From Bacteroidota bacterium (GTDB lineage: Bacteria; Bacteroidota; Ignavibacteria; Palsa-1295), in assembly GCA_030706745.1 (NCBI GenBank), contig JAUZNX010000006.1:140998-204997 (forward strand): a stretch of DNA of 64,000 bases, given 5' to 3'. The notes beneath the pieces are model-generated. The model saw only the letters and a program-made list of their open reading frames with translations. It was not told the origin of the DNA and searched no databases. Shown one piece after another: positions 679 to 41,466 of this stretch (position 1 is its first letter; every line of letters starts with the position of its first letter). The position numbers were made by a program, and so were the translations under genes.

Positions 679-1803
679 TTGCCAATTACCATTTCGCCCG
701 ACGATTACTCCGCCTGGATGCGACTCCGCTTCCCGGAGTTGAATAAAGCTATCGATGATGGCCCCGCGCTCGGTGCCATCCACGCGCTCGCGGAAGAATC
801 CGTTCGTGCCTGCAGCGCAATTTCTCACGTGTGCAAGCAGGAGCGCGAGCGATTCACCTATATCTCGATGATTCACAGCTCGCTCTATCGGCACGAGCGA
901 GCTGTGCCATCGGAGGAACTGAAGCTGGCCGTGGGAAAAGTAGAATCTGTGATGATTCCGCTTGCCGCCTCGCTTGGGGTCGAGCACCGTTTCCTGGCGT
1001 TCTTCTATCTGTTGCACAATCCCAAAGTGAATGGCCTCCACGCCCAATTCCGTCCGGGACCGGGCGAGGCTGCTTTCGCGAACATCAACCGCGAAGGGAC
1101 CAAGTACTTCCAAAGTGCTGCGCTTCAATTACTCGAAGCGCACAAACGACTCTCGTCGGGATCCAAAGACGTCCTCGAACTTCTCCATAGCGCCACAGCC
1201 GACTTCGAGCGCATTGTAACATTGAACCGTGAACTGGCGCAGACGCTCGACCGCGATGAATTCAAAGCATTGACCGAGTACTTCCAGACCGTCGTGGTCC
1301 AGGGCCGCACGTTGCGCGGAGTGAATGCTGGCGACCAACCGTGGTCCTATATCATCGATCTCCTGCTTGGAGTGAATCTCAAGCACGTATTCGAGATTGC
1401 GTTCGATCGGAAGTATCCGCCAGAGGTCCAAACGGTAGCGGATGCCATCATCCACGAGTTCAATCACGGCGATTATCTTAGACGTAATTATCTGCTGCCG
1501 GAAGACTACGCGAAGCTCGAGGAAACCGAAGCCTTGTTTGCCAATGGAGCCCCAAACATCATTGCCGCAGTTGCATCGGGCGACAGCGAAATCCTGAGCG
1601 CCTTGCGCGATGTCGCCCAGACCTATCTCATGACATCGAATACGCATCTTGGTCTGGCCCGGAAGTTTGTCCCGGTCGATCCGGAAAGCCACACACAGAT
1701 TGGCTCTTCGGGGACGAATATTCAGAAATTCTTGAAGGATGGGCTGATTGATGAACGGGCACGCACCCTCGCCGTTGTGGAGCGGCTGAGGGATCAAGGT
1801 TGA
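679..1803 (+). CDS. Hypothetical protein of 374 aa with no recognisable motifs. Start uncertain: TTG at 679, first ATG at 718.
   Basis: Long ORF following the aminotransferase on the same strand, with codon usage like its neighbours. Confidence 0.5.
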   Translation: MPITISPDDYSAWMRLRFPELNKAIDDGPALGAIHALAEESVRACSAISHVCKQERERFTYISMIHSSLYRHERAVPSEELKLAVGKVESVMIPLAASLGVEHRFLAFFYLLHNPKVNGLHAQFRPGPGEAAFANINREGTKYFQSAALQLLEAHKRLSSGSKDVLELLHSATADFERIVTLNRELAQTLDRDEFKALTEYFQTVVVQGRTLRGVNAGDQPWSYIIDLLLGVNLKHVFEIAFDRKYPPEVQTVADAIIHEFNHGDYLRRNYLLPEDYAKLEETEALFANGAPNIIAAVASGDSEILSALRDVAQTYLMTSNTHLGLARKFVPVDPESHTQIGSSGTNIQKFLKDGLIDERARTLAVVERLRDQG

Positions 1804-1920
1804 GGGATGAAGGGTCGGATCCCACCCCTGTCCTTCAACCCATCATCCTTCAAACCTGCCCCGGAAACCCAACAATAAAATATTCGTTGAAACGTCAGTC
1901 GTCTATTCGTCGTCCAAATT

Positions 1921-3755: not shown

Positions 3756-4646
3756 CTACTCCGACACGAATACCTTCACCAACGCGCCTTCCATGTGGAT
3801 GAAATAGAGTCCAGACGGGAGGCGCGGGATAGTCGCTGAAGTCTCTCCCACTGCAATTGACTGCTCGGTGATCCTCACACCGAGGGGTGTGAATACTTCG
3901 AGAGTTCTCGGATTCGGAGAGGATGCGAAAGCGCATTCGATGGAGCCGCCCAAGGAGCGAATGGATAAACTCCTTAATTGAGTCACCTCTCGCACTGCGG
4001 ACGTACCATTTGTAAGATGAGTGGGAGGGAAGATTCCAGAAAGGTCGGCGGAGTAGGTGCCAAGGAGTGTCGATTTGTGGCCGTCACCTGGACCGATGTG
4101 ATGGCAATACCTCTTCTCACATTGAAGACTTAGCATCTGCCCTACGCCGAGTTGTGGACATTGAATCGATGCGCTGTCGTAGGTGAGACCAAAAAGGAAT
4201 GCGCTGCCAGAATAGCTCCAATCTGCGTGATACTGAAAACTCTCCCCAGAGGAGTCAACGCTAAACTGAAGTGTGCGAATGCTATCGCTATTTGGAGCGA
4301 AGACAATCCACACTCTAAAATCTTCTCCTCCAGAGTCAAACTCGCCCGAGTAACCAATTTGGCGCTGGTACCGTAGCGTATCTCCACGGATAACTAGGCT
4401 GGCACCCTTGAGTGTAGTGTCGACAGTAACGCCTATTCCTACTAGCACAGAGTCAGCAACCCACGGGTCAGCTTCGTAGCACTGGCCAGTCGTCGAGTTA
4501 AATCCGACATGCAACAGTTGTTGCTCAACCAGGAACGTGCCACGCAGTGTGAATGGCAGCTTCCACGGACATTTCCCGCTGTCCACCGGCGTTGCCCGAA
4601 GGCTGGTTGTCATACAGAGGATCGCGATTGTCGATAGTATCCACAT
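3756..4646 (-). CDS. Secreted protein with T9SS-type C-terminal sorting domain (function unknown)
   Basis: N-terminal signal-like segment. C-terminus ...LPSGLYFIHMEGALVKVFVSE matches the Por/T9SS CTD pattern. Confidence 0.55.
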   Translation of the reverse strand: MWILSTIAILCMTTSLRATPVDSGKCPWKLPFTLRGTFLVEQQLLHVGFNSTTGQCYEADPWVADSVLVGIGVTVDTTLKGASLVIRGDTLRYQRQIGYSGEFDSGGEDFRVWIVFAPNSDSIRTLQFSVDSSGESFQYHADWSYSGSAFLFGLTYDSASIQCPQLGVGQMLSLQCEKRYCHHIGPGDGHKSTLLGTYSADLSGIFPPTHLTNGTSAVREVTQLRSLSIRSLGGSIECAFASSPNPRTLEVFTPLGVRITEQSIAVGETSATIPRLPSGLYFIHMEGALVKVFVSE

Positions 4647-4736: not shown

Positions 4737-5723
4737 CTACGTCAGCGGATTCGAATGCAGGAATGTCTCCTCGCCTTCATCGAGTCGGGTTAGCTCGCTC
4801 TTGATGTGCTCGAATGCGTCCTCTGGGGTATCACTGAAGTGAACGAGATTCAGATCGCTTCGAGAGATCATTCCGAATTCAGCAAGTTTATCGAAGTTCA
4901 CGATTTGCTGCCAATAATCCTGACCGTAAACGACGATCGGCATCTTCTTGCGAATCTTGCCGGTTTGGATCAGGGTGAGGAGTTCGAAGAGTTCGTCCAT
5001 CGTGCCGAACCCACCGGGGAAAATAACGAGGGCTTTACCGAGATATGCAAACCAAAATTTGCGCATGAAGAAATAGTGGAATTCGAAGTTCAGCTCATCG
5101 GTAATGTAACTGTTCGGCATTTGCTCGAAGGGCAACGCGATGTTGAACCCGATGGACTTCCCCCCGCCCAGCGTTGCGCCCCGGTTAGCTGCTTCCATGA
5201 TGCCGGGTCCGCCGCCGGAGCAAATGACATATCGTTGTTTAAAGGAGTGCGTCTTGATGGTCTCCACATTGACGTAAGGAATTTGCTCCTTCACCTGCGC
5301 GGCCGCAATCTGACCTTTTGCCACCTGCGCTCGCTCATAATTTTGCGCGGCTTTGGTGATGGACCACTCCGTGAGAAGGCGCGCCAGCTCGGATGCCTCG
5401 ACGTAATACCGTGAAAAATCGCTGTGCATCTTGGCGCGCCGCATCGCCTCATCGAGTTCGGTCTCGACATCGGGCGACATCGAGTTCGTTTGCTGGGCAA
5501 GCGAGCGAGCATTCTCAAGTTGGTGAATCTCCGCATCGACTTCTTCGGGCGACTGAATGCGGGCAGAGCCAAAGAATACAATAGTATCCCGCACGCGTGC
5601 ATGCGAGAGCCGCATGCGCGGCTCGACATACTCCGAAAGCATGCGAATGATGCGAGCTTCAGGGCTCGTCAGGAAGGATTCGTTTAAGTATGCCTTTTCG
5701 GCGCGTTGTTTGACGGCTGACAC
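4737..5723 (-). CDS. LOG family protein (cytokinin riboside 5'-monophosphate phosphoribohydrolase / lysine decarboxylase-like, long form)
   Basis: GGGPGIMEA...PGGFGTMDELFE motifs of the TIGR00730/LOG family. GTG start at 5723 confirmed by reverse-complementing the printed sequence. Confidence 0.8.
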   Translation of the reverse strand: MSAVKQRAEKAYLNESFLTSPEARIIRMLSEYVEPRMRLSHARVRDTIVFFGSARIQSPEEVDAEIHQLENARSLAQQTNSMSPDVETELDEAMRRAKMHSDFSRYYVEASELARLLTEWSITKAAQNYERAQVAKGQIAAAQVKEQIPYVNVETIKTHSFKQRYVICSGGGPGIMEAANRGATLGGGKSIGFNIALPFEQMPNSYITDELNFEFHYFFMRKFWFAYLGKALVIFPGGFGTMDELFELLTLIQTGKIRKKMPIVVYGQDYWQQIVNFDKLAEFGMISRSDLNLVHFSDTPEDAFEHIKSELTRLDEGEETFLHSNPLT

Positions 5724-5731
5724 AGTTTTAG

Positions 5732-5763
5732 GTGCTAAGTGCTAAGTGCTGAGTGCTAAGTGC
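5732..5763. repeat. Heptanucleotide tandem repeat (GTGCTAA/GTGCTGA, about 4.6 copies) 8 nt upstream of the LOG gene start
   Basis: Read directly: gtgctaagtgctaagtgctgagtgctaagtgc. Confidence 0.9.
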
Positions 5764-9634: not shown

Positions 9635-9971
9635 CCGTTAGGAGTAGCTCGATGAATTTTGCGTTGCTTCAAACGATGAGAACTTACCATGATGGGTACA
9701 AATTCCGCTATTAAATCGACTTCATTTCGCGTGCGAGGTGTAATTCCATCCCTGGTCTAGTGTTACTTATAGTACAGGCATGCGTAATTGTCTGTAAGGT
9801 TTTGCATCAGATTCATCCGCTATGGCGCTTAGAATGGCACAATGGTTGATTTTAGGAAACATAAGGACGGTTTTGGTGGAAGGCTGAGTTTCAAGTCGTA
9901 ATTTCGAAGTGGAATGCGGGACCATACAGGTCCTTCGCCACACAAGTTTAGCTGCTGTTAGGAGAAACATT

Positions 9972-12587
9972 ATGCCAGAAGGCAATTTTTCAAATCGAGT
10001 TCAGGACGTCATTCGGCTGTCGCGCGAAGAAGCGATCCGGCTAGGCCATGATTACATCGGCACGGAGCACCTGCTCCTCGGGATTATTCGGGAGGGCGAA
10101 GGGATCGCGGTCAAGATCCTCCGCAATCTCGGGGCCGACCTTTATAAGATCAAGAAGGCGATCGAGGATACCGTTCGGTCATCCGGATCGACGCTCACGA
10201 TCGGCAATATCCCGCTGACCAAGCAGGCTGAGAAGGTGCTGAAGATCACCTATCTCGAAGCCAAACTGTACAAGAGCGATGTCATCGGCACCGAGCACCT
10301 GCTGCTGTCGCTGTTGCGCGATGAGGATAATATTGCCGCGCAAATCCTGAATCAGTTTACGGTCACCTACGATGCCGTACGTGCCGAGCTTGATAATATC
10401 ATCTCGGGCCGCCCAACATCACCGCCAAAAACCGCCGCGGCAGACGCGACGAAAAAGCCCGAGCGGACGAAAACGCCCGTGCTCGATAACTTCGGTCGCG
10501 ACCTGACCAAAATGGCTGCGGACGACAAACTCGACCCCATTGTGGGCCGAGAGAAGGAGATCGAGCGCGTGAGCCAGGTGCTCTCACGCCGCAAGAAAAA
10601 TAATCCGGTGCTTATTGGCGAGCCAGGCGTTGGCAAAACCGCAATCGCGGAAGGCCTGGCGCTGCGCATCGTTCAGAAGAAGGTCCCGCGCATTCTTTAC
10701 GAGAAGCGCGTGGTCACCCTCGATCTGGCTGCACTCGTGGCCGGCACAAAGTACCGCGGTCAGTTCGAAGAGCGTATGAAGGCTGTGATGAACGAGCTTG
10801 AAAAAGCGAAAGACGTCATTCTCTTCATCGATGAGCTTCATACAATCGTTGGCGCCGGTGGCGCTTCGGGTTCGCTCGATGCTTCGAACATGTTCAAGCC
10901 GGCGCTGGCCCGTGGCGACATCCAGTGCATTGGCGCGACGACGTTAGACGAGTACCGCCAGTACATCGAAAAGGATGGTGCTCTCGACCGACGCTTCCAG
11001 AAGATCATTGTCGATCCGCCGACTGTCGAGCAGACGATCACGATCCTGAATAACATCAAGCTGAAGTATGAGCAGCACCATAGCGTGCATTACTCGGAGA
11101 AGGCGATCGAGCAAGCTGTAAAACTTTCCGACCGCTATATCACGGACCGTTTCCTGCCCGATAAGGCCATTGACGTGCTCGATGAAGCCGGCAGCCGCGT
11201 GCATCTGGCAAATGTTCATGCGCCGAAGAATATTGAGGAGCTGGAGAAGAAGATCGAAGAGGTCAAGACCGAAAAGAATCTTGTCGTCAAGACCCAGAAC
11301 TTCGAAGAAGCGGCTCGCTTGCGCGATCTTGAAAAGAAGTATCAGCAAGATCTCGAATTGGCTGTTTCCCAGTGGGAGGCCGAGACGGGCGCACAGGTCT
11401 ACGAAGTCAGCGAAGAGGACATTGCAGATGTCGTCGCAATGATGACGGGTATCCCGGTTAACAAGGTTGCCGAAGGTGAAACCTCGAAGTTGCTCAACAT
11501 GATGGAGTCCCTGCGTGGCTCTGTCGTTGGTCAGGACGAGGCCATCGAGAAGTTGACGAAGGCAATCCGCCGGGCTCGCGCCGGACTCAAAGATCCGAAT
11601 CGGCCCATCGGCAGCTTTATCTTCCTTGGCCCTACGGGCGTGGGAAAAACCGAGCTCGCGAAAGTGCTCGCGCGGTATCTCTTCGATACCGATGATGCAC
11701 TGGTGCGCATTGACATGTCGGAATACATGGAGAAATTCTCCGTGAGCCGATTGGTCGGCGCGCCTCCAGGATACGTCGGGTACGAAGAAGGCGGCCAACT
11801 GACCGAGAAGGTCCGTCGCAAACCGTATTCGGTCGTACTCTTGGACGAGATCGAGAAAGCGCATCCAGATGTGTTCAACATCCTGCTGCAAGTACTCGAT
11901 GATGGCCAACTTACCGATTCGCTCGGTCGCCGCGTCGATTTCAAGAACACGATCATCATCATGACGTCGAACGTCGGCACCAAGGACATTAAGAAGCAGG
12001 CCCGCATCGGATTTGGGGAGTCTGCCGGCGGCGATGAACATACGAAGATGAAGGACCAGGTCGATGAGTCCATGAAGCGACTCTTCAATCCGGAATTCCT
12101 CAATCGTATCGACGACACGATTGTCTTCCGTCACCTCGAGAAGGACGATATCAAGCTGATCATCAAGATCTCGCTCGGCAAGTTGCTCAAGCGGGTGCAT
12201 GAGATGGGCGTTGAGGTCGAACTGACCGATAAGGCGCTGGACTTCCTCTCCGAGAAAGGATATGACAAGACATTCGGCGCGCGCCCACTCAAGCGCGCAA
12301 TGCAGAAATTTGTCGAAGACCCAATCGCCGAGGAAATTCTGAAGGGGACGGTCAAGGATGGTACACTCGTCAAGGTCGATGTCGCGGCTAACGGAGCAGA
12401 GTTGCTGTTTACGATCGAGACGAAGGCGGGTGTCGGACCGGACGCACAGCCCGTTTCCCTTCCAACGGCCTCGATCGATGAAGTGATGAAGGAAGCCGGC
12501 ATCACGACGGCCCCACCAGAAGAAGAAGCGCACCACGAAGCGCACACGGATTCTGGCGGCGATCATCCAGAACCAGCAGAGGTATAA
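9972..12587 (+). CDS. clpC: ATP-dependent Clp protease ATP-binding subunit ClpC
   Basis: Two Clp_N repeats, AAA-1 [12 protein letters not shown]-like linker, AAA-2 GPTGVGKTE, ClpB D2-small domain. ATG at 9972 preceded by AGGAGA. Confidence 0.9.
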
Positions 12588-12591
12588 ATAG

Positions 12592-12625
12592 AAAGGCCGG
12601 GTCTTTGACCCGGCCTTTTCATTTC
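12592..12625 (+). terminator. Rho-independent terminator after clpC
   Basis: aaaGGCCGGGTctttgACCCGGCCtttt: 8-bp GC stem, 5-nt loop, T-run. Confidence 0.85.
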
Positions 12626-21087: not shown

Positions 21088-21278
21088 ACCCTCATACCTC
21101 GCATTTAGCGGCCAATTGGATGCCCTGAACGAGATTGCTTCGTCGGCCTTCGGCCTCCCCGCAATGACGGCTTCAGAAAAACATCGCGTTCGTGTCGTAT
21201 TTTTGCAGGACAAAGGCGTTCTCCAAACGCAACCAGGGTTGCGTTCACCTCTGTTTGAAGGCGCGACGAAAGGAATTA

Positions 21279-23048
21279 ATGACACATCAATTCGACGTAA
21301 TCATAGTAGGCGCGGGCGGTGCAGGGCTTCGCGCGGCGGTGGAAATTCCTGCTGGCTACACGTGCGCGGTGCTGACGAAAGTGCATCCGCTCCGCTCGCA
21401 TACCGGCGCGGCCCAAGGCGGCGTCTGCGCTGCGCTGGGCAATCAGGAAGAGGATAATCCTGAGTGGCACGCATACGATACCGTCAAAGGCTCTGATTAT
21501 CTCGGCGATCAGGATGCAATCGAAACGATGTGCAACGATGCACCGCGCGCTGTGATCGAGTTGGAGCATATGGGCATGCCATTCTCTCGAACTGAGGAAG
21601 GCAAGATTGCGCAACGCAAGTTCGGCGGTCATACCCGTCCGACCGATCCGAACGATCCGGACTCAAAGCGAGTCGCAGTCATGCGCGCGTGCTACTCCGC
21701 GGACCGGACTGGCCATGTGATGCTACACACGCTCTATGAGAACTGCCTCAAGAACAATGTCAACTTCTTCAGCGAGTTTTTTGCGACGGAGTTGCTCTAT
21801 GAGAACGGCGTCTGCTCGGGCGTCATCGCAATCGAAATTCTGACCGGCGCGATTCATACCTTCCATGCAAAGGCTGTGATGTTCGCCACCGGCGGCGATG
21901 GCCGCATCTGGCGCATCACCTCGAACGCCCACGTCGGCACCGGCGATGGTTTCATGCTGACCTACAACGCAGGTCTGCCACTTGAAGACATGGAATTTAT
22001 GCAATTCCATCCGACGGGATTGTGGAAGCTTGGCATTCTGGTGAGCGAAGCAGCTCGCGGCGAAGGCGGTATCCTTCGCAATAAAGATGGTGAGCGTTTC
22101 ATGGAGCGCTACGCGCCGACCGTGAAAGATTTGGCTCCGCGCGACATGGTTTCGCGCGCAATCATTCAGGAGATTCGCGAAGGCCGCGGCATCAAGGGCT
22201 CCGATGGCACATTTTACATTGACCTCGATCTGACCCATTTGCCGGCATCGGTCATCAACGAGAAGCTTCCGGAAATCACTGGATTTGCGCGGACCTATCT
22301 TGGCGTCGAACCGACGACTGAAGGCGTGCCGATCCAGCCGACCGCGCACTATGCGATGGGCGGAATTCCGACTGACGTTGATGGTCAGGTGCGCAGCAAC
22401 AGCGGCGATGGCCTTGCGCGTGGATTCTATGCTGCGGGCGAGTGCGCTTGCGTTAGCGTTCATGGTGCGAATCGACTCGGCACGAATTCGCTGCTTGATA
22501 TCATCGTCTTTGGACGTCGAGGCGGTAAGGCAATTGCGAATTACCTGAAGGCTGGCGCGGAGTATGCGAAACTCCCGGCAACGGCCGGCGAGTGGACCCG
22601 CTCGAAGATCGATGAGATCAAGTCGCGCGCAACCGGCGAGAAACCCGCGCCAATCCGCACCGAATTGCAGCAGATCATGATGGATGACTGCGGTATTTTC
22701 CGCACCGCTAAAGGCTTAGAGAGCGTTCGTGATAAGATCGTCGGTCTTCGCGAACGATATTCTCGCGTCGTGATCGATGACAAGGGTATGCAATTCAATA
22801 CCGATCTGCTCGAAGCGATCGAGCTTGGCAACTTACTCGATACAGCTAACGTGGTTGTCAATTGCGCGTTAAATCGCGAGGAAACACGCGGTGGTCATGC
22901 CCGAGAGGACTTCCCTGAGCGAGACGATAAGAATTGGATGAAGCATACATTTGCCTCCAAGGGAAATCAGTCGGGCTTTGCGGCCCCAACCCTCGAATAC
23001 CGGCCTGTCGCTGTGACGAAGTACAAGCCAAAGAAACGCGTCTATTAG
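21279..23048 (+). CDS. sdhA: Succinate dehydrogenase/fumarate reductase flavoprotein subunit (SdhA/FrdA family); no sdhB/sdhC adjacent
   Basis: FAD-binding VIIVGAGGAGLRAA, RSHTGAAQGG, HYAMGGIPTD, 589 aa. ATG at 21279 after AAGGAA. Confidence 0.85.
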   Translation: MTHQFDVIIVGAGGAGLRAAVEIPAGYTCAVLTKVHPLRSHTGAAQGGVCAALGNQEEDNPEWHAYDTVKGSDYLGDQDAIETMCNDAPRAVIELEHMGMPFSRTEEGKIAQRKFGGHTRPTDPNDPDSKRVAVMRACYSADRTGHVMLHTLYENCLKNNVNFFSEFFATELLYENGVCSGVIAIEILTGAIHTFHAKAVMFATGGDGRIWRITSNAHVGTGDGFMLTYNAGLPLEDMEFMQFHPTGLWKLGILVSEAARGEGGILRNKDGERFMERYAPTVKDLAPRDMVSRAIIQEIREGRGIKGSDGTFYIDLDLTHLPASVINEKLPEITGFARTYLGVEPTTEGVPIQPTAHYAMGGIPTDVDGQVRSNSGDGLARGFYAAGECACVSVHGANRLGTNSLLDIIVFGRRGGKAIANYLKAGAEYAKLPATAGEWTRSKIDEIKSRATGEKPAPIRTELQQIMMDDCGIFRTAKGLESVRDKIVGLRERYSRVVIDDKGMQFNTDLLEAIELGNLLDTANVVVNCALNREETRGGHAREDFPERDDKNWMKHTFASKGNQSGFAAPTLEYRPVAVTKYKPKKRVY

Positions 23049-23194
23049 TAGTGGATAGTTGATAGTGGGTAGTGGACAGTTGAAATGCACAGAGTGGAGA
23101 TTGATCGATGAGAAGCGGATGCTGCCAATAGTATGGGCACTATCCATTTTCCTCTATTCACTATCCACTATTATCTACCCACTATCATCTACTG
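23048..23194. repeat. Long imperfect inverted repeat built from GTGGATAGT-type units (hairpin), copy 1
   Basis: Left arm gtagtggatagttgatagtgggtagtggacagttg pairs with right arm cactatccactattatctacccactatcatctactg. Related in sequence to 41350–41466. Confidence 0.7.
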
Positions 23195-23829
23195 CGCAGA
23201 ACATGCCGCGTGAGGCGGGATTTCTGTTTGCAGCGAACGGTCAAGCGTCACTGGTGAAGAGCAATGATATCAATCGCGGATTCTTCACGAACCCGACGAT
23301 CGAGCACTTCTACTATAGCTTTGAGACCAATGGTGTGCAGTCGCTCTCGATCTTTCTCGAGCATATTAATGAAACTCGAAATTGGAGCGGCATTTGGACT
23401 GATGCGCAAATACTCGGTGGCTCCAAGAACTTTCCAGCGAGCGTATCAGAGAATCTCCAGGTGACCGTGATCGGTTTGGAGACAAATCGGACGCTCATCA
23501 CGGCATCCGATTTTCGTCTCGGTGCTGGATTTGGATTGGGCTTCGGTCTCGGTGGTGCATCAGCGGATGTCACACACGATACGACAAATATTACCGACAC
23601 ACACACATCGGAGACTGCATGGCAGGCGCTCCTAATGGCCGCGTCACTCCGGGCGCGTTACACGATTTGGACTGGTGGCAAATATGAAATCGCGATTGTC
23701 GCGTTGGGTCGAGTATGGTACTTTCCTTATATCGGCCCTATCGGCAGTGCAAGTCGTTCATATAACGGCCCCGGCTTGCGTACCCTAAGTGAATATGGCT
23801 ATCTGGCCGGTCTTGCGTTCGGATTCTGA
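23119..23829 (+). CDS. Putative outer-membrane beta-barrel protein. Start uncertain: ATG at 23119 gives a signal peptide; alternative ATG at 23203 sits just after the hairpin.
   Basis: Gly-rich strands (GAGFGLGFGLGG), C-terminal ...GLAFGF ending in F. Confidence 0.5.
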   Translation: MLPIVWALSIFLYSLSTIIYPLSSTAQNMPREAGFLFAANGQASLVKSNDINRGFFTNPTIEHFYYSFETNGVQSLSIFLEHINETRNWSGIWTDAQILGGSKNFPASVSENLQVTVIGLETNRTLITASDFRLGAGFGLGFGLGGASADVTHDTTNITDTHTSETAWQALLMAASLRARYTIWTGGKYEIAIVALGRVWYFPYIGPIGSASRSYNGPGLRTLSEYGYLAGLAFGF

Positions 23830-34762: not shown

Positions 34763-36652
34763 ATGTACCTCTCTAATATTAAGCTCTGGAATTTCCGAAA
34801 GTACGGACGCGCGGGTCAAGAGTCAACGCTCGATCTTCGGAACCCCCACTTGAGTCTCGACTTCTCGAATGGGCTCAATGTTCTGATCGGTGAGAACGAC
34901 TCGGGGAAATCAGCTATCATTGATGCAATTAAGCTCACGCTCAAGACGCAAAGCTACGAGTGGTTGAGAATTGAGCGAGAGGATTTTTTCAATGACTCCG
35001 CCAAGCTGAGAATAGAATTAGAGTTCGACGGTTTTAAGGACATCGAAGCAAAGAACTTTACTAAATGGTTAGGATGGAAAGAGAAGACTACCGAGACCGG
35101 GTCTAAGGAGAAGGTGCCATACTTGCGCTTGGTTTACGAGGTACAGCGCAAACTGGAGGAGGGAAGAATATTACCATCTGACGTGAGGGCTGGCGTCGAT
35201 GACGAGTGTTATCTTCTCGATGCCGGCGCAAAAGAATACCTGAAAGTCACTTACCTCAAGCCATTGCGCGATGCCGAGAGCGACTTGACCCCAAAGAGGA
35301 ATTCAAGACTGTCACAAATTCTTGCGAGCCACGAGGCTTTTAAGGGCAAAGAAACAACTCATTTTTTGGTCCGTCTTTTCGAGAGATTCAATGATTCCAT
35401 CCTTGGATATTTTGAAGGCGTGGACGTTGGGACTGACGGTAGCGAAGCGCCATCCCAGGATCAAGAAGGTAAGAAGCTGAAGGACAAAGTCGATAGTCTG
35501 CTCAGTGAGATGTACGATGAATCGAAAGAATCTAACTTTGATGTAACTTCGAAGAAGGAAGTAAAGGAGATTCTTGAGAAGCTCGAGTTGAGCTTGAAAA
35601 ATGACTTGAACCCTGGGCTCGGCACCCTGAACCGACTTTTTGTTTCTTCTGAATTGCTTCACCTTGAGAAGAAGGATTGGACTGGGCTACGCCTCGGCCT
35701 CATCGAAGAACTCGAAGCTCACCTTCATCCTCAGGCTCAAATGCGTATCATTGCGGCACTCCGAGAGATAAGCGGTACTCAACTGATTCTCACCACGCAC
35801 AGTCCGAATATTGGTTCAAAGGTCAAGTTAAAAGAATTGATCTTGTGTAGTGGCGACAATGTCTTTCCGATGAAGGATGGTTGCACCAGACTCAAAAGCC
35901 CCGACTACACATTTCTTGAGAGATTTCTCGACGCAACGAAAGCAAATCTATTTTTCGCGAAAGGAGTCATCCTTGTCGAAGGGTGGGCAGAGGAAATTCT
36001 GATTCCGGCTCTCGCCAAGGCCATTGATTGCGACCTTACGAAGAAGGGTGTTTCCGTCGTTAATGTCGGGAACCTCGCCTTCTTGCGATATTCCAGCATC
36101 TTTCAAAGGCAGGCTCCTCCCCCCATGGAGATGCCTGTGGCCGTCGTAACCGACCTCGACATTATGCCTGAGGATGAAGGTGCTGACGCAGAAAGTAAAA
36201 CAACAACCAAGAAGGCGAAGTACGATGGCGTACCAGTAAAAACATTCGTCTCCCCGCATTGGACCTTGGAGTACTGTATTGCAAGATCGACTAAACTCCG
36301 AAGGACATTCTACAAGGCAATCTTGGAGGCATTGCGTGAGAAAAAGGAGGATGAAGGAATGAGCGAGACCGGATTGGCAGAATATGTCACGGCAATTACG
36401 AATATAGACGTGCACTTCAATGGTTGGAGTAAGAGTGAAGCTGAGATAGCCAGTTCGATCTATTCTCAAATTTTGGGAGAAGCCAAGGTGCTGGAATTGG
36501 CCAGGGGCAAGATTTCGAAGACTATCATTGCCCAGCATTTCGCCAAGCTCCTGGATGAAGGGGCAGTTGCGAAGACTGATATCGAGACCGACACTAATAT
36601 TTCTTATCTCATCGATGCCATAAAGTATGCCTGCCGCGTTAGTAGTCACTAA
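34763..36652 (+). CDS. gajA: OLD-family ATP-dependent endonuclease, Gabija GajA-like (ABC-type ATPase + TOPRIM)
   Basis: N-terminal IKLWNFRKY...GENDSGKSAIIDAI (Walker A), LIEELEAHLHPQAQ (Walker B/H-loop), TOPRIM GVILVEGWAEEILIPALA. Strong SD AAAGGAGA before ATG 34763. GC lower than its surroundings. Confidence 0.8.
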   Translation: MYLSNIKLWNFRKYGRAGQESTLDLRNPHLSLDFSNGLNVLIGENDSGKSAIIDAIKLTLKTQSYEWLRIEREDFFNDSAKLRIELEFDGFKDIEAKNFTKWLGWKEKTTETGSKEKVPYLRLVYEVQRKLEEGRILPSDVRAGVDDECYLLDAGAKEYLKVTYLKPLRDAESDLTPKRNSRLSQILASHEAFKGKETTHFLVRLFERFNDSILGYFEGVDVGTDGSEAPSQDQEGKKLKDKVDSLLSEMYDESKESNFDVTSKKEVKEILEKLELSLKNDLNPGLGTLNRLFVSSELLHLEKKDWTGLRLGLIEELEAHLHPQAQMRIIAALREISGTQLILTTHSPNIGSKVKLKELILCSGDNVFPMKDGCTRLKSPDYTFLERFLDATKANLFFAKGVILVEGWAEEILIPALAKAIDCDLTKKGVSVVNVGNLAFLRYSSIFQRQAPPPMEMPVAVVTDLDIMPEDEGADAESKTTTKKAKYDGVPVKTFVSPHWTLEYCIARSTKLRRTFYKAILEALREKKEDEGMSETGLAEYVTAITNIDVHFNGWSKSEAEIASSIYSQILGEAKVLELARGKISKTIIAQHFAKLLDEGAVAKTDIETDTNISYLIDAIKYACRVSSH

Positions 36653-38651
36653 CGGTGACATCGAATACGCCGAGGGTATTCTGTTGCCCGCCGGCATGAC
36701 GTTCGATGATGAACGTCGGGCCTTCATTCGCAATTTTGAAACCATAGACCTTCAGGCCGTTCCAGGAAGTGGCAAGACAACAGCGCTCCTTGCCAAACTG
36801 CTGATTATCGAGAAGCATCTGCCTCTGAATGACGGATCTGGGGTCCTGGTACTTTCGCACACAAACGCAGCAGTGGATGAGATCAAGAATGCAATTGGCA
36901 TCCACTGTCCGAAGCTATTCGCGTATCCTAACTACGTCGGCACAATACAGAGCTTCACAGATAAATTCCTTGCAATACCCTACGGACACAACTGTCTCGG
37001 AGTTAGATTTGACCGTGTCGATTCAGAAGCTTTTTCGGAGAGGCTTTGGAAGAACTTCCGTCTCGTGCAACAACGCGAAGATTTCGGAAGTCTCGGGAAG
37101 TGGTTCTATGGCATGCACATTGCGACCGCGAAAGAAATCGCCGGAGAGAATAAGCCAGAGGTTAGGCGCCTCTGCAATGCGTTGATCGAAGCGCACGTGA
37201 AAAATATTCGTTACGACTACAACGAGGAATGCTTTAGGAATGGGATTGATGGTAAAGCGCTCCTGAAGTCGAAGACCAATCCAAAATTTAATGCACTGCT
37301 GGCGATTACTCAAGAAACTTTCGCCGAGGGTTATCTTTCGTTTGATTACGCCTATATCCTTGCCAAGCATTATCTCATTCTTGTCCCTGAGCTTACCCCA
37401 ATTGTGAGAAAGCGATTCCCATACGTCTTCGTTGATGAGATGCAAGATATGGATCCCCACCAATACACCTTGTTAGAGACGCTTTTTGCACCTTCGGGGC
37501 CTCATCAACCCATTTATCAAAGGATCGGAGACAAGAACCAAGCGATATACGAGGGGCTTACCGGGGAGATTTGGCAGGATCGAGCGCCTGATCGAATACT
37601 CTCCCTAAAAGGGTCATATCGCTTGAGCAGTCAAGTCGCAAAAGTCGTGCAGCCATTCGCCCTCACTCCTATAGCAATAGATGGGCGGCGGGAGCTTCGT
37701 GTGCCAATTAAGCCTTGCTTGTTGGTTTATACCGAGCCTTCGCACGTGATTAATGAGTACATCCGAATTATCCGAACGCATGTCGACTCCGGGGCTATTC
37801 CATCCAATACAGCAAATGGGTTCCATGCAATCTGTTGGGTGACGAAAGAGAAAGAGACGGAAACGACACTCTCTAGATACTTTGCTGATTTCAAGCGTGT
37901 CAAACAAGAGTCAGGTTCAAATTATTATTGCCTTAGGGCTTACTTCGATGCGATGGATCCGGTAAGTCAGTGCGTGAGAGCAATACGTAGTCATCTCATC
38001 AACGCCATTCTGAAGGTGTTACGACTTGAAGATATACGCGATGAGAACAATAGATACTATACGCAAGCGCGCTTTCTTCGCCAATTGAATCAACTTGACC
38101 TCACGCGAGATACAAAATATTCGGACGAATTTAATTTTCAGCTCTTTCAATGGTGCAGTGCGGTGGCAAACGGGAAGACTACTGAGGCCCTGAGGGACCT
38201 GCGCATCTTCCTTCCTAATCTGTTGGGCTGGCTTGACAAGACTCTTACGAAAGCGGACGCGATCACATTTGTCAATGCAGACTCAGCATCGAGTCAATCG
38301 GTTGGGGAGAATACCTCCGAAAGTCGAGATGTAAACGTTGCCATCGAGCCATCGGGAGACATTAGGATTGAAGTGTCAAACGTTCACGCAGTAAAGGGAC
38401 ACACGCACACAGCAACGTTGTACATGGAGTCCTTTTACCAGAAAATGTATGAGTCATCCAGACTCCCCGGACCTTTCCTGAATGGCAGTGCTAAGATCAA
38501 AGGAACGTACCAGAATGAAACCGCAAGGTTGCTCTACGTAGGTTTCTCGCGTCCGACGCATCTGCTTTGCTTCGCGGTTCACAAGGAGCGATTTGAAGCT
38601 CATTTAAGTGCGATTGACAGAGATATTTGGGAAATCGTGGAGGTATCGTGA
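36627..38651 (+). CDS. gajB: UvrD-like superfamily-1 helicase, Gabija GajB-like. Alternative start ATG at 36696.
   Basis: Walker A AVPGSGKTTAL. Motif II VFVDEMQDMD. IGDKNQAIY, SYRLSSQV, VHAVKGHTHTATL, LYVGFSRPTHLL match the GajB/UvrD motif set. Overlaps gajA by 26 nt. Confidence 0.8.
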   Translation: MPAALVVTNGDIEYAEGILLPAGMTFDDERRAFIRNFETIDLQAVPGSGKTTALLAKLLIIEKHLPLNDGSGVLVLSHTNAAVDEIKNAIGIHCPKLFAYPNYVGTIQSFTDKFLAIPYGHNCLGVRFDRVDSEAFSERLWKNFRLVQQREDFGSLGKWFYGMHIATAKEIAGENKPEVRRLCNALIEAHVKNIRYDYNEECFRNGIDGKALLKSKTNPKFNALLAITQETFAEGYLSFDYAYILAKHYLILVPELTPIVRKRFPYVFVDEMQDMDPHQYTLLETLFAPSGPHQPIYQRIGDKNQAIYEGLTGEIWQDRAPDRILSLKGSYRLSSQVAKVVQPFALTPIAIDGRRELRVPIKPCLLVYTEPSHVINEYIRIIRTHVDSGAIPSNTANGFHAICWVTKEKETETTLSRYFADFKRVKQESGSNYYCLRAYFDAMDPVSQCVRAIRSHLINAILKVLRLEDIRDENNRYYTQARFLRQLNQLDLTRDTKYSDEFNFQLFQWCSAVANGKTTEALRDLRIFLPNLLGWLDKTLTKADAITFVNADSASSQSVGENTSESRDVNVAIEPSGDIRIEVSNVHAVKGHTHTATLYMESFYQKMYESSRLPGPFLNGSAKIKGTYQNETARLLYVGFSRPTHLLCFAVHKERFEAHLSAIDRDIWEIVEVS

Positions 38652-38660
38652 GGTGTGGGT

Positions 38661-38781
38661 AACTCGCGCTCAGGGTCGAGCGTCGCGGGGCTGGCGGGTC
38701 TTTGGAGCCTCAGCCATGCCCATGGTTGCTCATTGCAACGCTAGCAAACGAACAGGGTGGTGCTACCGGGAGTTCGGGCGC
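38661..38781. repeat. Direct repeat R1 (~120 nt) immediately after the gajB stop
   Basis: aactcgcgc..cgcggggctggcgggtctttggagcctcagccatgcc ... gctcattgcaacgctagcaaacgaacagggtggtgctaccgggagttcgggcgc repeated at 40398–40542. Confidence 0.85.
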
Positions 38782-38809
38782 GTGGAGGCAAGTAGGGTGT
38801 AGCTCGTCT

Positions 38810-40096
38810 CTACGTGATGCTTCCAGCGGGATAGAGCGCGGGAAAGATATACGGGACTGCTTTGATCGGAAAAGTTAGCCGAAGCGCGCCAAGCGGAGTG
38901 AGTGAAGTGACAAGTTCCAGTTTGGTGAGAGCCTGCGTAATTCTCCTTGCGGAGCGATCCGATGTACCAGTCAGCCTGGCTACCTCGCTTCGCGGAAGTT
39001 CTCCTCTTAAGAAAATCTCCGTAAGAAGATATTTCGCGCTCGTGTCGAGCACTCCTTGCAACGCAAGAAGTTCGACATATTGCGTAAGACGATCGAGCAT
39101 CGCGTTGGTCTCGAGCAGACCAGACATAAAGTTCACTTGATCGATTGCAACATCGAGCAAAAAATCGACGAAGTCATCCAGTCCGCGTTGCGAGAGATTG
39201 CCGCGTCCATCATAATTGTTGTAACGGGGTGCATCTGCGGCCTCCAGTGCTTTATAGTATTCCTCCCTTTTCCGCGCAATACCGCGGGAGAGCGACCACA
39301 GCCCATTACTATCCAGATCTGCCCTCATAAAATAGAGGTGCGTAAAAAGCCTGACAACCCGTCCATTCCCATCTAAGAAGGGATGGATCCACGCGAGTCG
39401 GTGATGTGCTGCAATAGCGGCGATAATTCTCTTCACGGAGCCGAGAGGAGTTGGAGAATAGACTTCGTGAAATCGCTCCATGAACTGAGGGATCGAGGAG
39501 TGCTGCGGCGGAACATGCTTGCCGACTTGCACATCATCCCGTCTAAATTTGCCTGGCACGACTTTCAGCACGTTGCCGGCAGTCGCACGGACTAATTTGA
39601 ATTCTTCCGGGAGCTTATCGTAAAAGCTTTTGTGCATGCTCAGGAGAAACTCCGGTGACGCAACATCGACATCTGAAGAATCTCGTAGCTCTCGCTCAAA
39701 CTGTTCCTGCACCTCGATATGTGCTCGCCCTTCAATCTGCAACGCCTTCTTGCGAGGCTCCGCAGAGTAATCGTTCTTTTGTGCGCGCTCGAGGTCCAAT
39801 GGATGCGTGACATTTCCCTCGATGAGATTGGAATAATAGCTATTCATCAGCCGAAGGAGCTGAGAGGTCTGACGCTGGGTGATGGGATGGAGTTTGCCCG
39901 AAAGCTGTTGCGATCGTTTGAGGAGTTCAACCGCTTTCTCTTCGAGACTTGGGCGGGCGGGCCACATCGGCTCCATTTGAGAGATTCCGCTGTACATGGG
40001 CATCACAGCCTTCCGGGCCACTGATTTCCCATTTAGCTTGGCACTTTTGGCCGACTTATTGGCCGACTTATTGGCCGACTTATTGGCCGACTTCAT
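38810..40096 (-). CDS. Fic family protein (Fic domain + C-terminal winged-helix) with a KSAN-repeat N-terminus encoded by a 12-nt tandem repeat. Alternative starts at internal Met residues (MPMYSG...).
   Basis: Fic motif HPFLDGNGRVVRL. ATG at 40096 confirmed. 428 aa. Confidence 0.8.
   Translation of the reverse strand: MKSANKSANKSANKSAKSAKLNGKSVARKAVMPMYSGISQMEPMWPARPSLEEKAVELLKRSQQLSGKLHPITQRQTSQLLRLMNSYYSNLIEGNVTHPLDLERAQKNDYSAEPRKKALQIEGRAHIEVQEQFERELRDSSDVDVASPEFLLSMHKSFYDKLPEEFKLVRATAGNVLKVVPGKFRRDDVQVGKHVPPQHSSIPQFMERFHEVYSPTPLGSVKRIIAAIAAHHRLAWIHPFLDGNGRVVRLFTHLYFMRADLDSNGLWSLSRGIARKREEYYKALEAADAPRYNNYDGRGNLSQRGLDDFVDFLLDVAIDQVNFMSGLLETNAMLDRLTQYVELLALQGVLDTSAKYLLTEIFLRGELPRSEVARLTGTSDRSARRITQALTKLELVTSLTPLGALRLTFPIKAVPYIFPALYPAGSIT
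40047..40093. repeat. 12-nt tandem repeat (TTGGCCGACTTA, about 4 copies) lying in-frame in the first codons of the Fic gene
   Basis: Read directly. Encodes (KSAN)n. Confidence 0.9.
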
Positions 40097-40232: not shown

Positions 40233-40285
40233 GGACATAAACCATTGGAACTCTATTACGTTTGGCTTTGCCAAACGTAATAGAG
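40233..40285. repeat. Perfect palindrome: 25-bp stem with 3-nt loop (ccattggaactctattacgtttggc ttt gccaaacgtaatagagttccaatgg)
   Basis: Read directly, no mismatches. Confidence 0.9.
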
Positions 40286-40299
40286 TTCCAATGGTAGCA

Positions 40300-40335
40300 G
40301 AAGCACATGCAAGCGGCTGTTCGCTTAAGCGAACA
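40300..40335. repeat. Perfect 36-nt palindrome (gcaagcggctgttcgctt|aagcgaacagccgcttgc)
   Basis: Read directly, no mismatches. 14 nt downstream of the first palindrome. Confidence 0.9.
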
Positions 40336-41081: not shown

Positions 41082-41349
<268 letters not shown>

Positions 41350-41351
<2 letters not shown>

Positions 41352-41466
41352 TGGATAGTTGATAGTGGAGAGTGGATAGTTCTACTCGTCTGCTATCTTC
41401 TTTGTGGCATGGCCGCATGAACGGCCCTGCACACTATCCACTTTCCACTATACACTATCCACTATA
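41350..41466 (+). promoter_or_regulatory. rpsO–pnp intergenic long hairpin (about 31-bp imperfect stem of GTGGATAGT-type units, about 54-nt loop containing a GGCCG/CGGCC sub-hairpin) ending at the pnp ATG
   Basis: Left arm agtggatagttgatagtggagagtggatagtt pairs with right arm cactatccactttccactatacactatccactata. Confidence 0.7.

Follow-up and report, generated by a model that had tools for sequence, protein, structure and literature searches.

The stretch of DNA under study (64,000 nucleotides, hereafter the window) contains two gene junctions, one downstream of sdhA and the other between rpsO and pnp, that are occupied by long inverted repeats. At each locus about five tandem copies of TAGTGGA face about five copies of TCCACTA, with arms of 33-35 nt flanking an unrelated spacer of 52-58 nt (Table 1). 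All four arms are head-to-tail arrays of a 7-nt unit, present in 4.6-7 copies as judged by TRF at period 7 and by a unit-register scan, and all four are intergenic, lying between the sdhA stop codon and the ATG at 23203 or between the rpsO stop codon and the pnp ATG. A sequence-only reading of this DNA had pointed out long hairpins with near-identical arms at both places, and TRF, an inverted-repeat finder and folding bear it out. That reading had also taken the arms to be built from repeated units, which are real, but had only half noticed that the units are tandem heptamers.

Table 1. Genes and repeat features at the two hairpin loci and elsewhere in the window
Feature	Position	Strand	Basis
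sdhA, succinate dehydrogenase/fumarate reductase flavoprotein	21192..23048	+	Pfam FAD_binding_2 (4e-107), Succ_DH_flav_C (3e-45)
Locus 1, 5' arm, five tandem heptamers	23049..23083	+	TRF period 7, unit-register scan
Locus 1, spacer (loop), 52 nt	23084..23135	+	fold, local alignment
Locus 1, 3' arm, about 7-8 degenerate complement units (CACTATC class)	23136..23192	+	TRF, inverted repeats
Native leader (tgcgcagaac), then 208-aa ORF with ATG at 23203	23193..23829	+	leader conserved in L125
rpsO, ribosomal protein S15, 89 aa	41082..41351	+	PF00312, gene call on source contig
Locus 2, 5' arm	41349..41380	+	TRF, inverted repeat
Locus 2, spacer (loop) with its own small GC hairpin GGCCGcatgaaCGGCC	41381..41431	+	fold, sequence
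Locus 2, 3' arm	41432..41465	+	TRF, inverted repeat, sequence
pnp, polynucleotide phosphorylase, 753 aa	41467..43728	+	Pfam RNase_PH x2, PNPase, KH_1, S1
Third hairpin, like architecture, other unit	1787..1852	+	TRF period 14 at 1787-1813, fold, sequence
Lone heptamer array, (GTGCTAA)x4.6	5732..5763	.	TRF, sequence

At the sdhA junction (locus 1) the first heptamer unit directly adjoins the stop codon of the gene (TAG, 23046-23048), and the C-terminus encoded just before it (...KKRVY*) is common to the window and L125. The units of the 5' arm run in the order TAGTGGA TAGTTGA TAGTGGG TAGTGGA CAGTTGA. TRF called period-7 arrays at 23049-23080 (TAGTGGA, 4.6 copies) and at 23138-23186/23192 (CACTATC, 7 copies), the 3' arm being reported as two rows, 23138-23186 and 23161-23192. 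The inverted-repeat finder paired 23046-23080 with 23139-23173 (35 nt, 77% complementary, 58 nt between the arms) and returned a second register with arms of 28 nt and 80 nt between them. The structure as a whole extends from 23049 to 23192 and is followed, after 10 nt, by the ATG at 23203. In L125, whose protein is 54% identical, the N-terminus of the open reading frame (ORF) is kept, as is the leader, gcgcagaa(t/c)ATGCCGC.... The product had been called an outer-membrane protein, an identity for which we obtained no support, as the 208-aa ORF had no match in Pfam or NCBIfam. A metagenome scan with this protein recovered one distant relative, and the spacer downstream of sdhA in that relative carries an unrelated palindromic element.

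At the rpsO-pnp junction (locus 2) the fit is closer still, in that the first heptamer unit opens with the stop codon of rpsO itself (TAG, 41349-41351). The 5' arm reads TAGTGGA TAGTTGA TAGTGGA GAGTGGA TAGT and the 3' arm reads CACTATC CACTTTC CACTATA CACTATC CACTAT. TRF called period-7 arrays at 41348-41380 (4.7 copies) and 41432-41465 (4.9 copies), and the inverted-repeat finder paired 41348-41380 with 41433-41465 (33 nt, 91% complementary, 52 nt between the arms). The structure extends from 41349 to 41465, so that the hairpin takes up all 115 nt between the stop and the start codon. The earlier statement that the 3' arm ends at an ATG in both cases needs correction: a single nucleotide lies between the arm and the pnp ATG at 41467, but 10 nt do so at the sdhA junction. 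The lineage of the host largely does without Shine-Dalgarno pairing, and no Shine-Dalgarno sequence was visible on inspection upstream of rpsO or pnp.

Both loci are predicted to fold into strong RNA hairpins. Locus 1 had a minimum free energy of -59.1 kcal/mol (z -4.18) and locus 2 one of -61.2 kcal/mol (z -8.86), and in neither case did any of 200 shuffled sequences fold as well. The arms of the two loci are also closely similar to each other. When at most one mismatch was allowed, GTGGATAGT gave 23 matches against 7.45 expected, the surplus sitting mainly at the two loci, and a 20-mer pattern with at most three mismatches gave 11 matches against 0 expected, all 11 of them inside the two loci. 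Indeed, a run of 20 nt, TAGTGGATAGTTGATAGTGG, is identical between locus 1 and locus 2, and alignment revealed that the order of the variant units agrees along both arms. Within the 64-kb window, then, the motif sits solely at two gene junctions rather than at random places. Meanwhile, local alignment of the two spacers against shuffled sequences detected no homology in either orientation (p 0.998 forward, 0.30 for the reverse complement).

The earlier suggestion of a terminator-type element did not hold up. The arms of both loci lack a U-run after the stem on either strand (the sequences that follow the two stems are UAAUGAAAUAC and CUGCGCAGAAC), and neither locus has the combination of GC-rich stem and U-run that marks an intrinsic terminator. 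A scan for terminators found no terminator-like site between 22700 and 23500 and, between 40900 and 41700, none on the + strand or at the hairpin and only two elsewhere, on the - strand; a promoter scan is of limited value for the host lineage. A search of the whole window against Rfam 15 at gathering thresholds gave no match, and in E-value mode the two loci returned only animal miRNA precursors (29.8 bits against a threshold of 100). On inspection, no target-site duplication was evident at the boundaries of either locus.

The two loci are not the only structures of this kind in the window, contrary to the sequence-only reading. A third hairpin (-41.7 kcal/mol, z -2.78) has a like architecture in which GAGGGAT/CAAGGTT/GAAGGGT units face CCTTCAA/CCATCAT, and its 5' arm contains the stop codon (TGA, 1801-1803) of an ORF at 679-1803 that resembles PrnB by its Pfam match. 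There is in addition a lone array, which on the - strand reads (AGCACTT)n and lies 9 nt upstream of the GTG start codon of the ORF at 4737-5723. Its unit core is also the core of an octamer hairpin found between rpsO and pnp in L122 (see below). In all, TRF reported five period-7 rows in the window, with TAGTGGA/CACTATC and GTGCTAA as units, the GAGGGAT-type hairpin being called at period 14.

A look-up with the S15 and PNPase proteins of the window returned the source contig and three near-identical contigs; PNPase homologues bore the names Candidatus Kapaibacterium, Kapabacteria, Ignavibacteriota and Bacteroidota, which makes the host probably a member of the Kapabacteria. We compared the rpsO-pnp spacer among PNPase relatives of 69-93% identity and found it in four states: a heptamer hairpin, an octamer hairpin, a single-copy stem, and an ordinary terminator followed by a leader. 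Within this set L123 is the sole relative with a heptamer hairpin of the identical type; a nested double-heptamer hairpin (-81 kcal/mol, z -9.35) is a further example in L123. In the closest relative, L122 (93%), the hairpin consists of another unit, which is 8 nt long. A single-copy stem is present in L208, and L124, L209 and L203-L206 have an ordinary GC hairpin with a T-run, that is, a terminator, and then a leader; the fold of the L124 spacer is unexceptional (z 0.02). Turnover at the orthologous rpsO-pnp site is therefore rapid. Because relatives show four different states of one spacer, the repeat hairpin in the window is, by these comparisons, a young and replaceable structure.

Arrays of this kind are widespread. 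The TAGTGGA unit occurs at no fewer than 120 loci in Cyanobacteria, Planctomycetota, Chloroflexota, Verrucomicrobiota, Acidobacteriota, Bacteroidota and others, against about 17 matches expected by chance by our own arithmetic; the names show the range of hosts and not their proportions. The source genome is not among the loci listed, and tblastn of proteins from the window against these loci found no close relative. Among the loci listed, which come from many phyla and amount to 874 kb, we counted 279 arrays of period 7, and none of the periods 5, 6 and 8-12 reached more than 9, a surplus that is due in part to how the loci were selected. The consensus unit was other than TAGTGGA in 162 of the 279, several of these units being one-base variants of it. 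Exact triple repeats were also present in viral contigs, with TGAGTGA (34) and TAGTGGA (20) followed by GGTATAG (9), AAGTGCT (6), AGTGTAG (5) and GATGTAG (3). We considered that TAGTGGA might be uniquely favored, or that an AGTG core might be needed, and rejected both ideas, as the viral counts for the six units, between 3 and 34, follow no clear rule.

The paired arrays obey a strict inward polarity. In close TAGTGGA pairs among the loci listed, the TAGTGGA arm came first 23 times and the reverse arrangement never occurred. When inverted pairs of all units at those loci were considered, G exceeded C in the 5' arm in 46 of 48 and the unit of the 5' arm contained a stop codon in 43 of 48. The arrays also abut gene ends: at the loci listed, an array ended an open frame of at least 100 codons in 66 of 188 cases (35%), as compared with 26 of 744 random positions (3.5%), the frame being required to terminate on TAG within the first three units of the array. 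Arrays thus coincide with the end of an ORF at ten times the rate of random positions, in keeping with the earlier proposal of a dispersed hairpin family at gene ends, and the family is no chance match. C-rich arrays near start codons showed a weak excess (24 of 188 against 64 of 738 in a control inflated by internal ATGs). The arrays listed were from 3 to 21 units long and many were unpaired; where they were paired, the inner sequences were unrelated and 5-113 nt in length. Finally, a comparison of variant-unit order between arms gave no sign of mirroring, with 0.85 mismatches per unit observed against 0.89 in shuffled arms and none of 24 informative pairs at p<=0.1, in a test of low power. 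Arm-to-arm conversion, or correction of a quasipalindrome, is therefore not supported by this test.

The two loci belong to a widespread class of heptamer repeats already described in bacteria, which is represented by the cyanobacterial STRR repeats and by those of Xanthomonas, Nostoc (GGGGAYT) and the Beggiatoaceae (TAACTGA). We think it probable that each is a convergent pair of heptanucleotide simple-sequence repeats that has come to fill all of the non-conserved DNA between two genes on one strand and forms, on a read-through transcript, a stem that couples or processes the flanking cistrons without being specific to pnp. As to origin, the arrays would lengthen by slippage and would spread or be homogenized between sites by ectopic conversion or another copying mechanism, until coding sequence is met. 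A step beyond slippage in place is called for because the two copies in the window share the same variant-unit order although their spacers are unrelated, which requires copy-and-paste or conversion. Nor can slippage combined with point mutation give rise to the different unit and period found at rpsO-pnp in the closest relative, L122.

As to function, we infer that the arms would be transcribed together and would pair on a read-through rpsO-pnp or sdhA-ORF transcript, giving a stem of about 33 bp with the insert looped out. The base of the stem would bring the upstream stop codon next to the downstream start codon, and the stem would bury the downstream initiation region. A perfect to near-perfect RNA stem of about 33 bp is a generic substrate for RNase III, so cleavage is plausible, and the same stem could serve as a 3' barrier to exonucleases. 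When a ribosome terminates on the stop codon where the 5' arm begins, it would open the outermost turns of the stem and so expose the sequence immediately before the next ATG; coupling of stop and start across the stem is, by this model, plausible as well. The net behavior would be that of an intercistronic coupling and processing hairpin.

The sequence-only reading had instead taken the 41.4-kb copy for a regulatory hairpin of pnp. Under such dedicated autoregulation, RNase III would cut the stem and PNPase would degrade its own mRNA, the sdhA copy being a second site. The stem is in the right position and, at about 33 bp, -61 kcal/mol and z -8.9, could be cut by RNase III by established knowledge. 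Moreover, a spacer-wide stem of differing sequence is found in the window, L123 and L122, and a short version in L208; its retention among the closest relatives could mean that the hairpin is under selection. Yet arms of the identical type follow sdhA, analogous hairpins lie at unrelated junctions, and the unit and architecture recur at arbitrary gene ends in many phyla. In relatives with PNPases of 69-87% identity the spacer holds just a plain terminator and a leader whose fold is unexceptional, and the spacer in the window has no space for the separate rpsO terminator and pnp promoter of the E. coli layout. Autoregulation of pnp thus seems to us distinctly unlikely; judging from the spacers of relatives, the heptamer hairpin appears to have supplanted the ordinary terminator and leader at rpsO-pnp and not to be a pnp-specific regulator. 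The hairpin does occupy the position of the rpsO terminator in relatives, as would befit a bidirectional terminator or insulator in which a symmetric hairpin, with stops in all frames on both inward strands, ends translation and then transcription. Because seven is coprime with three, a run of three TAGTGGA units carries a TAG in every reading frame, and the inward-reading unit has a stop codon in most inverted pairs (43 of 48, as above). We nevertheless hold this role to be very unlikely: U-runs are missing after the stems on either strand, the terminator scan was negative there, and there is no room after the stem for a promoter of pnp itself, so termination would silence an essential-type gene. 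Also, the GGGAATC repeats have the same polarity without a stop codon (PMC4692102).

Two further explanations look to the arrays rather than to the stem. If they were the terminal inverted repeats of a mobile foldback element (MITE- or REPIN-like), with sites for a transposase or a hairpin-specific recombinase at the ends and a variable interior, then the fixed polarity (23:0 and 46 of 48) would be accounted for, as would the near-identity of the window copies' arms down to the order of variant units, the presence, absence and replacement of hairpins at one orthologous site in close relatives, and the occurrence of TAGTGGA in distant phyla and in viral contigs. However, the conserved arms of the window loci enclose unrelated sequences with no target-site duplication evident, unlike a MITE, and the unrelated interiors, variable array lengths and many unpaired arrays of the wider survey speak against it too. 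No transposase was called within about 10 kb on either side of pnp on the source contig, and the sharing of period and polarity by many units points to a unit-independent process rather than to one transposase. We judge a mobile element to be unlikely. Alternatively, the units could be repeated sites for a nucleic-acid-binding protein that sets translation of the downstream gene, the hairpin being incidental. The arrays at 41432-41465 and, read on the - strand, 5732-5763 place G-poor, C/A/U-rich units just before a start codon, which would suit such a role, as would the scarcity of Shine-Dalgarno pairing in the host lineage. There is also a precedent in the S1-, Csp- or CsrA-like factors proposed to bind TAACTGA repeats (MacGregor 2015; PMC4679880). 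But the units vary within one genome and between close relatives, so that no single sequence-specific factor fits; the enrichment on the start-codon side is weak; and the paired form buries the sites in a stem of -60 kcal/mol. We doubt this explanation strongly.

A bolder version of the coupling-hairpin reading is that an active process, operating in many phyla, lays down hairpins at gene boundaries, as the period of seven, the polarity, the abutment and the replacement might suggest, and that passive slippage is not responsible. Although we give this little credence, candidates for the process may include an enzyme that lays down 7-nt repeats, or a templated reaction that extends or copies DNA where there are hairpins or stalled forks. 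Were it true, the hairpins would be a general device for looping out spacer RNA and coupling termination to the next initiation.

The literature on heptameric repeats goes back to 1990, and few long simple repeats are as common in bacteria. The window adds a clean case in a little-studied lineage. At rpsO-pnp a hairpin built from repeats stands exactly in place of the usual terminator and leader between housekeeping genes, and the relatives supply a series of four states for one spacer. The cross-phylum counts for inward G-rich polarity and for stop-codon abutment are rules that any mechanism must explain. The case also carries a warning for genome annotation and RNA-motif searches, since stems of this kind look strong, seemingly covarying and conserved in position, yet are not conserved regulators.

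How do these loci compare with known systems? In E. coli, the rpsO-pnp spacer contains the rpsO terminator, the pnp promoter and then a unique, conserved leader hairpin that is cut by RNase III. The window resembles it in having a long stem between rpsO and pnp, in a transcript capable of read-through and double-stranded enough for RNase III. Unlike the E. coli leader, however, the stem in the window is built from repeats, spans the whole spacer and recurs at unrelated junctions, while relatives lack it or have another structure in its place, and the spacer could not accommodate a terminator and a promoter as well. REP sequences, to which the sequence-only reading had likened the arms, are single imperfect palindromes of 20-40 nt, and REPINs have a conserved spacer and a cognate RAYT gene; Bertels and Rainey in 2011 reportedly described the mobilization of these elements by RAYT transposases. 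The loci in the window share with them short intergenic inverted pairs, long hairpins and dispersal at gene ends, but have arms of tandem heptamers in variable number and unrelated spacers, and no RAYT (Y1 transposase) gene was found among the genes called around pnp. The arms are better placed in the class of heptameric simple-sequence repeats (PMC4692102). Integron attC sites were considered too, as the arms are conserved around a variable centre and follow a stop codon, and were dropped on inspection of the sequence: core housekeeping genes flank the loci, and the arms, being tandem repeats, lack the attC core sites.

Among simple repeats, Mazel and colleagues are said to have described cyanobacterial heptamers in 1990 as short tandemly repeated repetitive (STRR) sequences, and Mrazek and colleagues reportedly wrote in 2007 of "long simple sequence repeats" (LSSR). 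The arrays studied here are like both in the over-representation of period 7, in the many units per genome and in a sporadic taxonomic distribution. To our knowledge, STRR and LSSR descriptions concern single direct arrays, the paired hairpin and the abutment of gene boundaries lying outside the definition. A further comparison is with the direct repeats of TAACTGA in marine Beggiatoaceae and in some Cyanobacteria and Bacteroidetes (MacGregor 2015; PMC4679880), which run right up to the start codon and in some cases reach back into the preceding ORF, and which occur ahead of ribosomal-protein genes and in spacers without a Shine-Dalgarno sequence, their spread across phyla being unexplained. 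The window heptamer likewise contains a stop codon, forms arrays at start codons and overlaps the ends of upstream ORFs. The TAACTGA repeats, in contrast, face the start codon in their stop-containing orientation and are almost never found as inverted pairs (1 of 170; PMC4679880), whereas the arrays in the window come in pairs and turn their complementary, stop-free orientation towards the start codon.

A close parallel is with the heptameric repeats of Xanthomonas (GGGAATC) and Nostoc (GGGGAYT) described by Rehm et al. (2015, PLoS One; PMC4692102). Each Xanthomonas genome has 70-75 convergent pairs capable of forming stem-loops, and the majority of the Xanthomonas repeats are transcribed. The G-rich strand lies on the sense side within 50 bp of, or overlapping, a stop codon, and on the antisense side just upstream of ORFs, a polarity that GGGAATC displays without containing a stop codon; the sequence and length of the repeat can differ at one junction between close relatives (PMC4692102). 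The loci in the window have the same intergenic tandem 7-nt units, the same convergent pairs and the same placement of the G-rich strand at the stop codon. They differ in that TAGTGGA has no G-run, and so no quadruplex, and carries a stop codon in each unit; in their host, which is a Kapabacteria-like bacterium of the FCB group; and in that the stop and start codons are exactly the limits of the paired structure. Both the polarity and the placement at ORF ends had been described for GGGAATC in Xanthomonas (Rehm et al. 2015).

Two long hairpins built from tandem heptamers lie in the window, one following sdhA (locus 1) and the other between rpsO and pnp (locus 2), and both are present as the sequence-only reading described them, with repeat calls, folds and motif counts in agreement. 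Tandem Repeats Finder assigned a period of 7 to all four arms, and an inverted-repeat finder returned arms of 33 nt (91% complementary) at locus 2 and of 35 nt (77%) at locus 1. The predicted RNA folds reached −61.2 kcal/mol (z −8.86) at locus 2 and −59.1 kcal/mol (z −4.18) at locus 1, with none of 200 shuffles as good in either case. The TAGTGGA-type motif greatly exceeds its chance expectation, and the 64-kb window has it only at these two junctions. The hairpins are thus real, non-random structures, and neither matched an Rfam family.

Features of the window and of the rpsO–pnp spacers of relatives (L-numbered loci)
Feature	Position	Description
sdhA stop codon TAG	23046-23048	directly adjoins first heptamer of locus 1
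Locus 1 5′ arm	23049-23083	five tandem heptamers: TAGTGGA TAGTTGA TAGTGGG TAGTGGA CAGTTGA
Locus 1 spacer		52 nt, between 5′ and 3′ arms
Locus 1 3′ arm	23136-23192	seven to eight degenerate complement units, CACTATC class
ORF after locus 1	ATG 23203	208 aa
rpsO stop codon TAG	41349-41351	beginning of first locus 2 unit
Locus 2 5′ arm	41349-41380	TAGTGGA TAGTTGA TAGTGGA GAGTGGA TAGT
Locus 2 spacer		about 51 nt
Locus 2 3′ arm	41432-41465	CACTATC CACTTTC CACTATA CACTATC CACTAT
pnp ATG	41467
Third hairpin	1787-1852	different 7-nt units: GAGGGAT, CAAGGTT, GAAGGGT facing CCTTCAA, CCATCAT
Lone array (GTGCTAA)x4.6	5732-5763	9 nt upstream of a − strand start codon
Palindrome A	40241-40295	26-nt arms, 3-nt loop; not repeat-built
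Palindrome B	40308-40345	19-nt arms, no loop; not repeat-built
L122 spacer	9896-9993	PNPase 93%, closest; stop-to-start hairpin, 8-nt units AAGTGCTN facing AGCACNNN; spacer unrelated
L123 spacer		PNPase 85%; TAGTGGA hairpin as at locus 2, sharing the first 24 nt and then built of other units (GAACGGA, both arms)
L208 spacer	229-349	PNPase 85%; only single-copy outer stem TTGTAGTGG ... CCACTACAA around three small GC hairpins
L209, L124 spacers		PNPase 86%, 87%; canonical GC hairpin and T-run after rpsO, then leader
L203-L206 spacers		PNPase 69-77%; canonical GC hairpin and T-run after rpsO, then 90-350 nt leader

Pfam confirmed the identities of sdhA and pnp, and the annotation of the source contig, JAUZOI010000007.1 of NCBI assembly GCA_030706525.1, that of S15 (rpsO). 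Among named PNPase homologues, those nearest to the window's protein belong to Candidatus Kapaibacterium, Kapabacteria, Ignavibacteriota and Bacteroidota. Shine-Dalgarno pairing is little used in this lineage, and neither rpsO nor pnp is preceded by a visible sequence of that kind. The ORF that follows locus 1 had been called an outer-membrane protein, a label that gained no support, as no Pfam or NCBIfam family matched it. Its start codon and the preceding 10 nt (gcgcagaac) are conserved in a homologue (54% identical) from the distant relative L125, so that what the repeat structure occupies is exactly that part of the spacer which is not conserved. In L125 the post-sdhA spacer (3800–3925) contains a different nested palindrome, GTCGTCATTGCGAG ... 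CTCGCAATGACG around CGACGAAGCAATC ... GATTGCTTCGTCG, and hence another kind of hairpin element occupies the equivalent junction; it resembles a dispersed repeat of many environmental genomes.

Orthologous rpsO–pnp spacers were retrieved from relatives ranked by PNPase identity. Their states vary, which shows the repeat-built stem to be a recent, replaceable occupant of the spacer, where it has displaced the usual terminator and leader. The octamer core in L122 matches the lone GTGCTAA array of the window, the L208 state may represent an unexpanded precursor of the TAGTGGA hairpin, and the fold of the L124 leader is unremarkable (z 0.02). The sequence-only reading had likened locus 2 to the RNase III-cleaved hairpin through which E. 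coli pnp is autoregulated. Part of this stands, in that a stem of some kind persists in the closest relatives, so that selection for having some hairpin at this position is conceivable. But ordinary terminators and leaders occupy the spacers of L209, L124 and L203–L206, and the repeat-built stem, judged from these comparisons, is not a conserved, pnp-specific element. A dedicated autoregulatory role for it is quite improbable.

Other features of this region deserve mention. Just upstream of rpsO is a defence island (34763–40096) comprising a Gabija system, GajA (E 2e-215) and GajB (E 7e-201), followed on the − strand by a gene whose product has a Fic domain and fits the SoFic model (E 8e-36; ORF 38810–40096); because these genes are missing from the corresponding region of L122, the island looks like an insertion. 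The first codons of the Fic ORF carry a 12-nt tandem repeat (ACTTATTGGCCG x4.3, 97% match; 40043–40093), which would specify a repeated four-residue N-terminal motif or be the sign of a mis-called start. Palindromes A and B, both perfect and 12 nt apart, lie in the gene-poor stretch of about 1 kb between this ORF and rpsO. The 3′ end of pnp (window 43609–43681; L122 12158–12227; L203 7515–7588) codes for a Gly/Arg/Asp-rich repeat of 18–21-nt period (GGCGGCGACCGTCGC-like), whose variable length among relatives accounts for differences in PNPase length (729–777 aa).

Repeat-built stems are not confined to TAGTGGA. A PrnB-like ORF upstream of the third hairpin of the window has its stop codon inside the 5′ arm. 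Such stems can be layered, as is shown by a nested hairpin between two − strand genes in L123 (13217–13365; −81.4 kcal/mol, z −9.35), in which outer AAGGATG/TCATTCC arms enclose inner CCGAAGT/ACTTCGG arms with no loop.

A scan for TAGTGGATAGTNNATAGTGG, with one genome per species, found at least 120 loci, as against about 17 matches expected by chance (arithmetic). Among the matches listed were Cyanobacteria, Planctomycetota, Chloroflexota, Verrucomicrobiota, Acidobacteriota, Bacteroidota, Proteobacteria, candidate phyla and one Methanoculleus bin. The 874 kb of listed loci held 279 arrays of period 7, as compared with at most nine for each of periods 5, 6 and 8–12; 162 of the 279 had a consensus other than TAGTGGA, in several cases differing from it by a single base. 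TAGTGGA is not a uniquely favoured unit: exact triple-unit counts in viral contigs were 20 for it and 34, 9, 6, 5 and 3 for five others. In the listed loci TAGTGGA arrays occur singly or in pairs and contain 3 to 21 units, and in close opposite-orientation pairs TAGTGGA came first in 23 and TCCACTA in none. The spacers of these pairs (5–113 nt) are unrelated in sequence and often have a GC hairpin of their own. Among inverted heptamer pairs of any unit in these loci, G exceeded C in the 5′ arm in 46 of 48, and 43 of 48 had a stop codon in the inward-reading unit. The TAG of one of the first three units ended an open frame of 100 codons or more in 66 of 188 TAGTGGA arrays, as against 26 of 744 random positions. 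Stop codons are not the sole cause of the inward G-rich polarity, since it holds for units that lack them, both in these loci and in published repeats (PMC4692102). The polarity may, for example, keep C-rich, G-poor RNA, on which Rho loads, from lying exposed until its partner arm has been transcribed.

Both window copies have the same order of variant units in both arms and spacers that share nothing, which requires that arms were copied or converted from one locus to another. When the two arms were tested for a mirrored order of units, the outcome was negative. In the closest relative, both unit and period differ at the same rpsO–pnp junction. Derivation from a mobile foldback element is a credible rival but unlikely, given that inner sequences are unrelated, array lengths vary, target duplications are not visible and many different units obey one rule. 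In several TAGTGGA pairs from other phyla (L009, L016, L045) the spacers are long GC-rich hairpins, and two pairs in L009, a Thiotrichaceae MAG (608–780 and 1952–2125), enclose nearly the same inner hairpin, which suggests that stem-loops or other small repeats were there first and that heptamer arrays came to surround them.

Beyond the observed anatomy, polarity, gene-end abutment and turnover, we consider it likely that the hairpins combine membership of the heptamer class with general intercistronic-hairpin behaviour. Given that neither spacer contains a canonical terminator or has space for a promoter, a single transcript probably covers rpsO and pnp, and likewise sdhA and the gene after it. 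On such a transcript the arms would pair, looping out the inserted sequence, bringing the stop codon of the first gene and the start codon of the second together at the stem foot and burying the 15–30 nt before the ATG. A ribosome that ends rpsO at the TAG, where the 5′ arm has its foot, would melt the outermost part of the stem and so uncover the nucleotides preceding the pnp ATG, which would couple the two genes. The 33-bp duplex would also be a substrate of the generic kind for RNase III and would hinder 3′ exonucleases. Canonical terminators are in use elsewhere in this genome, as indicated by an ordinary, bidirectional-looking one (AAATAGAAAGGCCGGGTC ... GACCCGGCCTTTTCATTT) between convergent ORFs at 12586–12624.

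The STRR heptamers of Cyanobacteria have reportedly been known since 1990. Rehm et al. (2015, PMC4692102) described GGGAATC repeats in Xanthomonas, with 70–75 convergent inverted pairs per genome, and GGGGAYT repeats in Nostoc; the G-rich strand is, with strong bias, sense within 50 bp of or overlapping a stop codon and antisense immediately before ORFs, transcription extends to most of the repeats, and sequence and length differ between close species. TAACTGA arrays lie flush with start codons, at times overlapping upstream ORF ends, and are common to Beggiatoaceae, Cyanobacteria and Bacteroidetes with no known transfer route (MacGregor 2015, PMC4679880); among the long simple repeats of prokaryotes, according to Mrazek as summarised there, heptanucleotides are the most abundant. 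The class is known but poorly understood, and the main value here lies in four spacer states at one housekeeping-gene junction and in cross-phylum numbers for polarity and stop codons. Because its properties are already published for other units, the window hairpins are a new member of this same class, with a new unit and a new host lineage, in the paired form.
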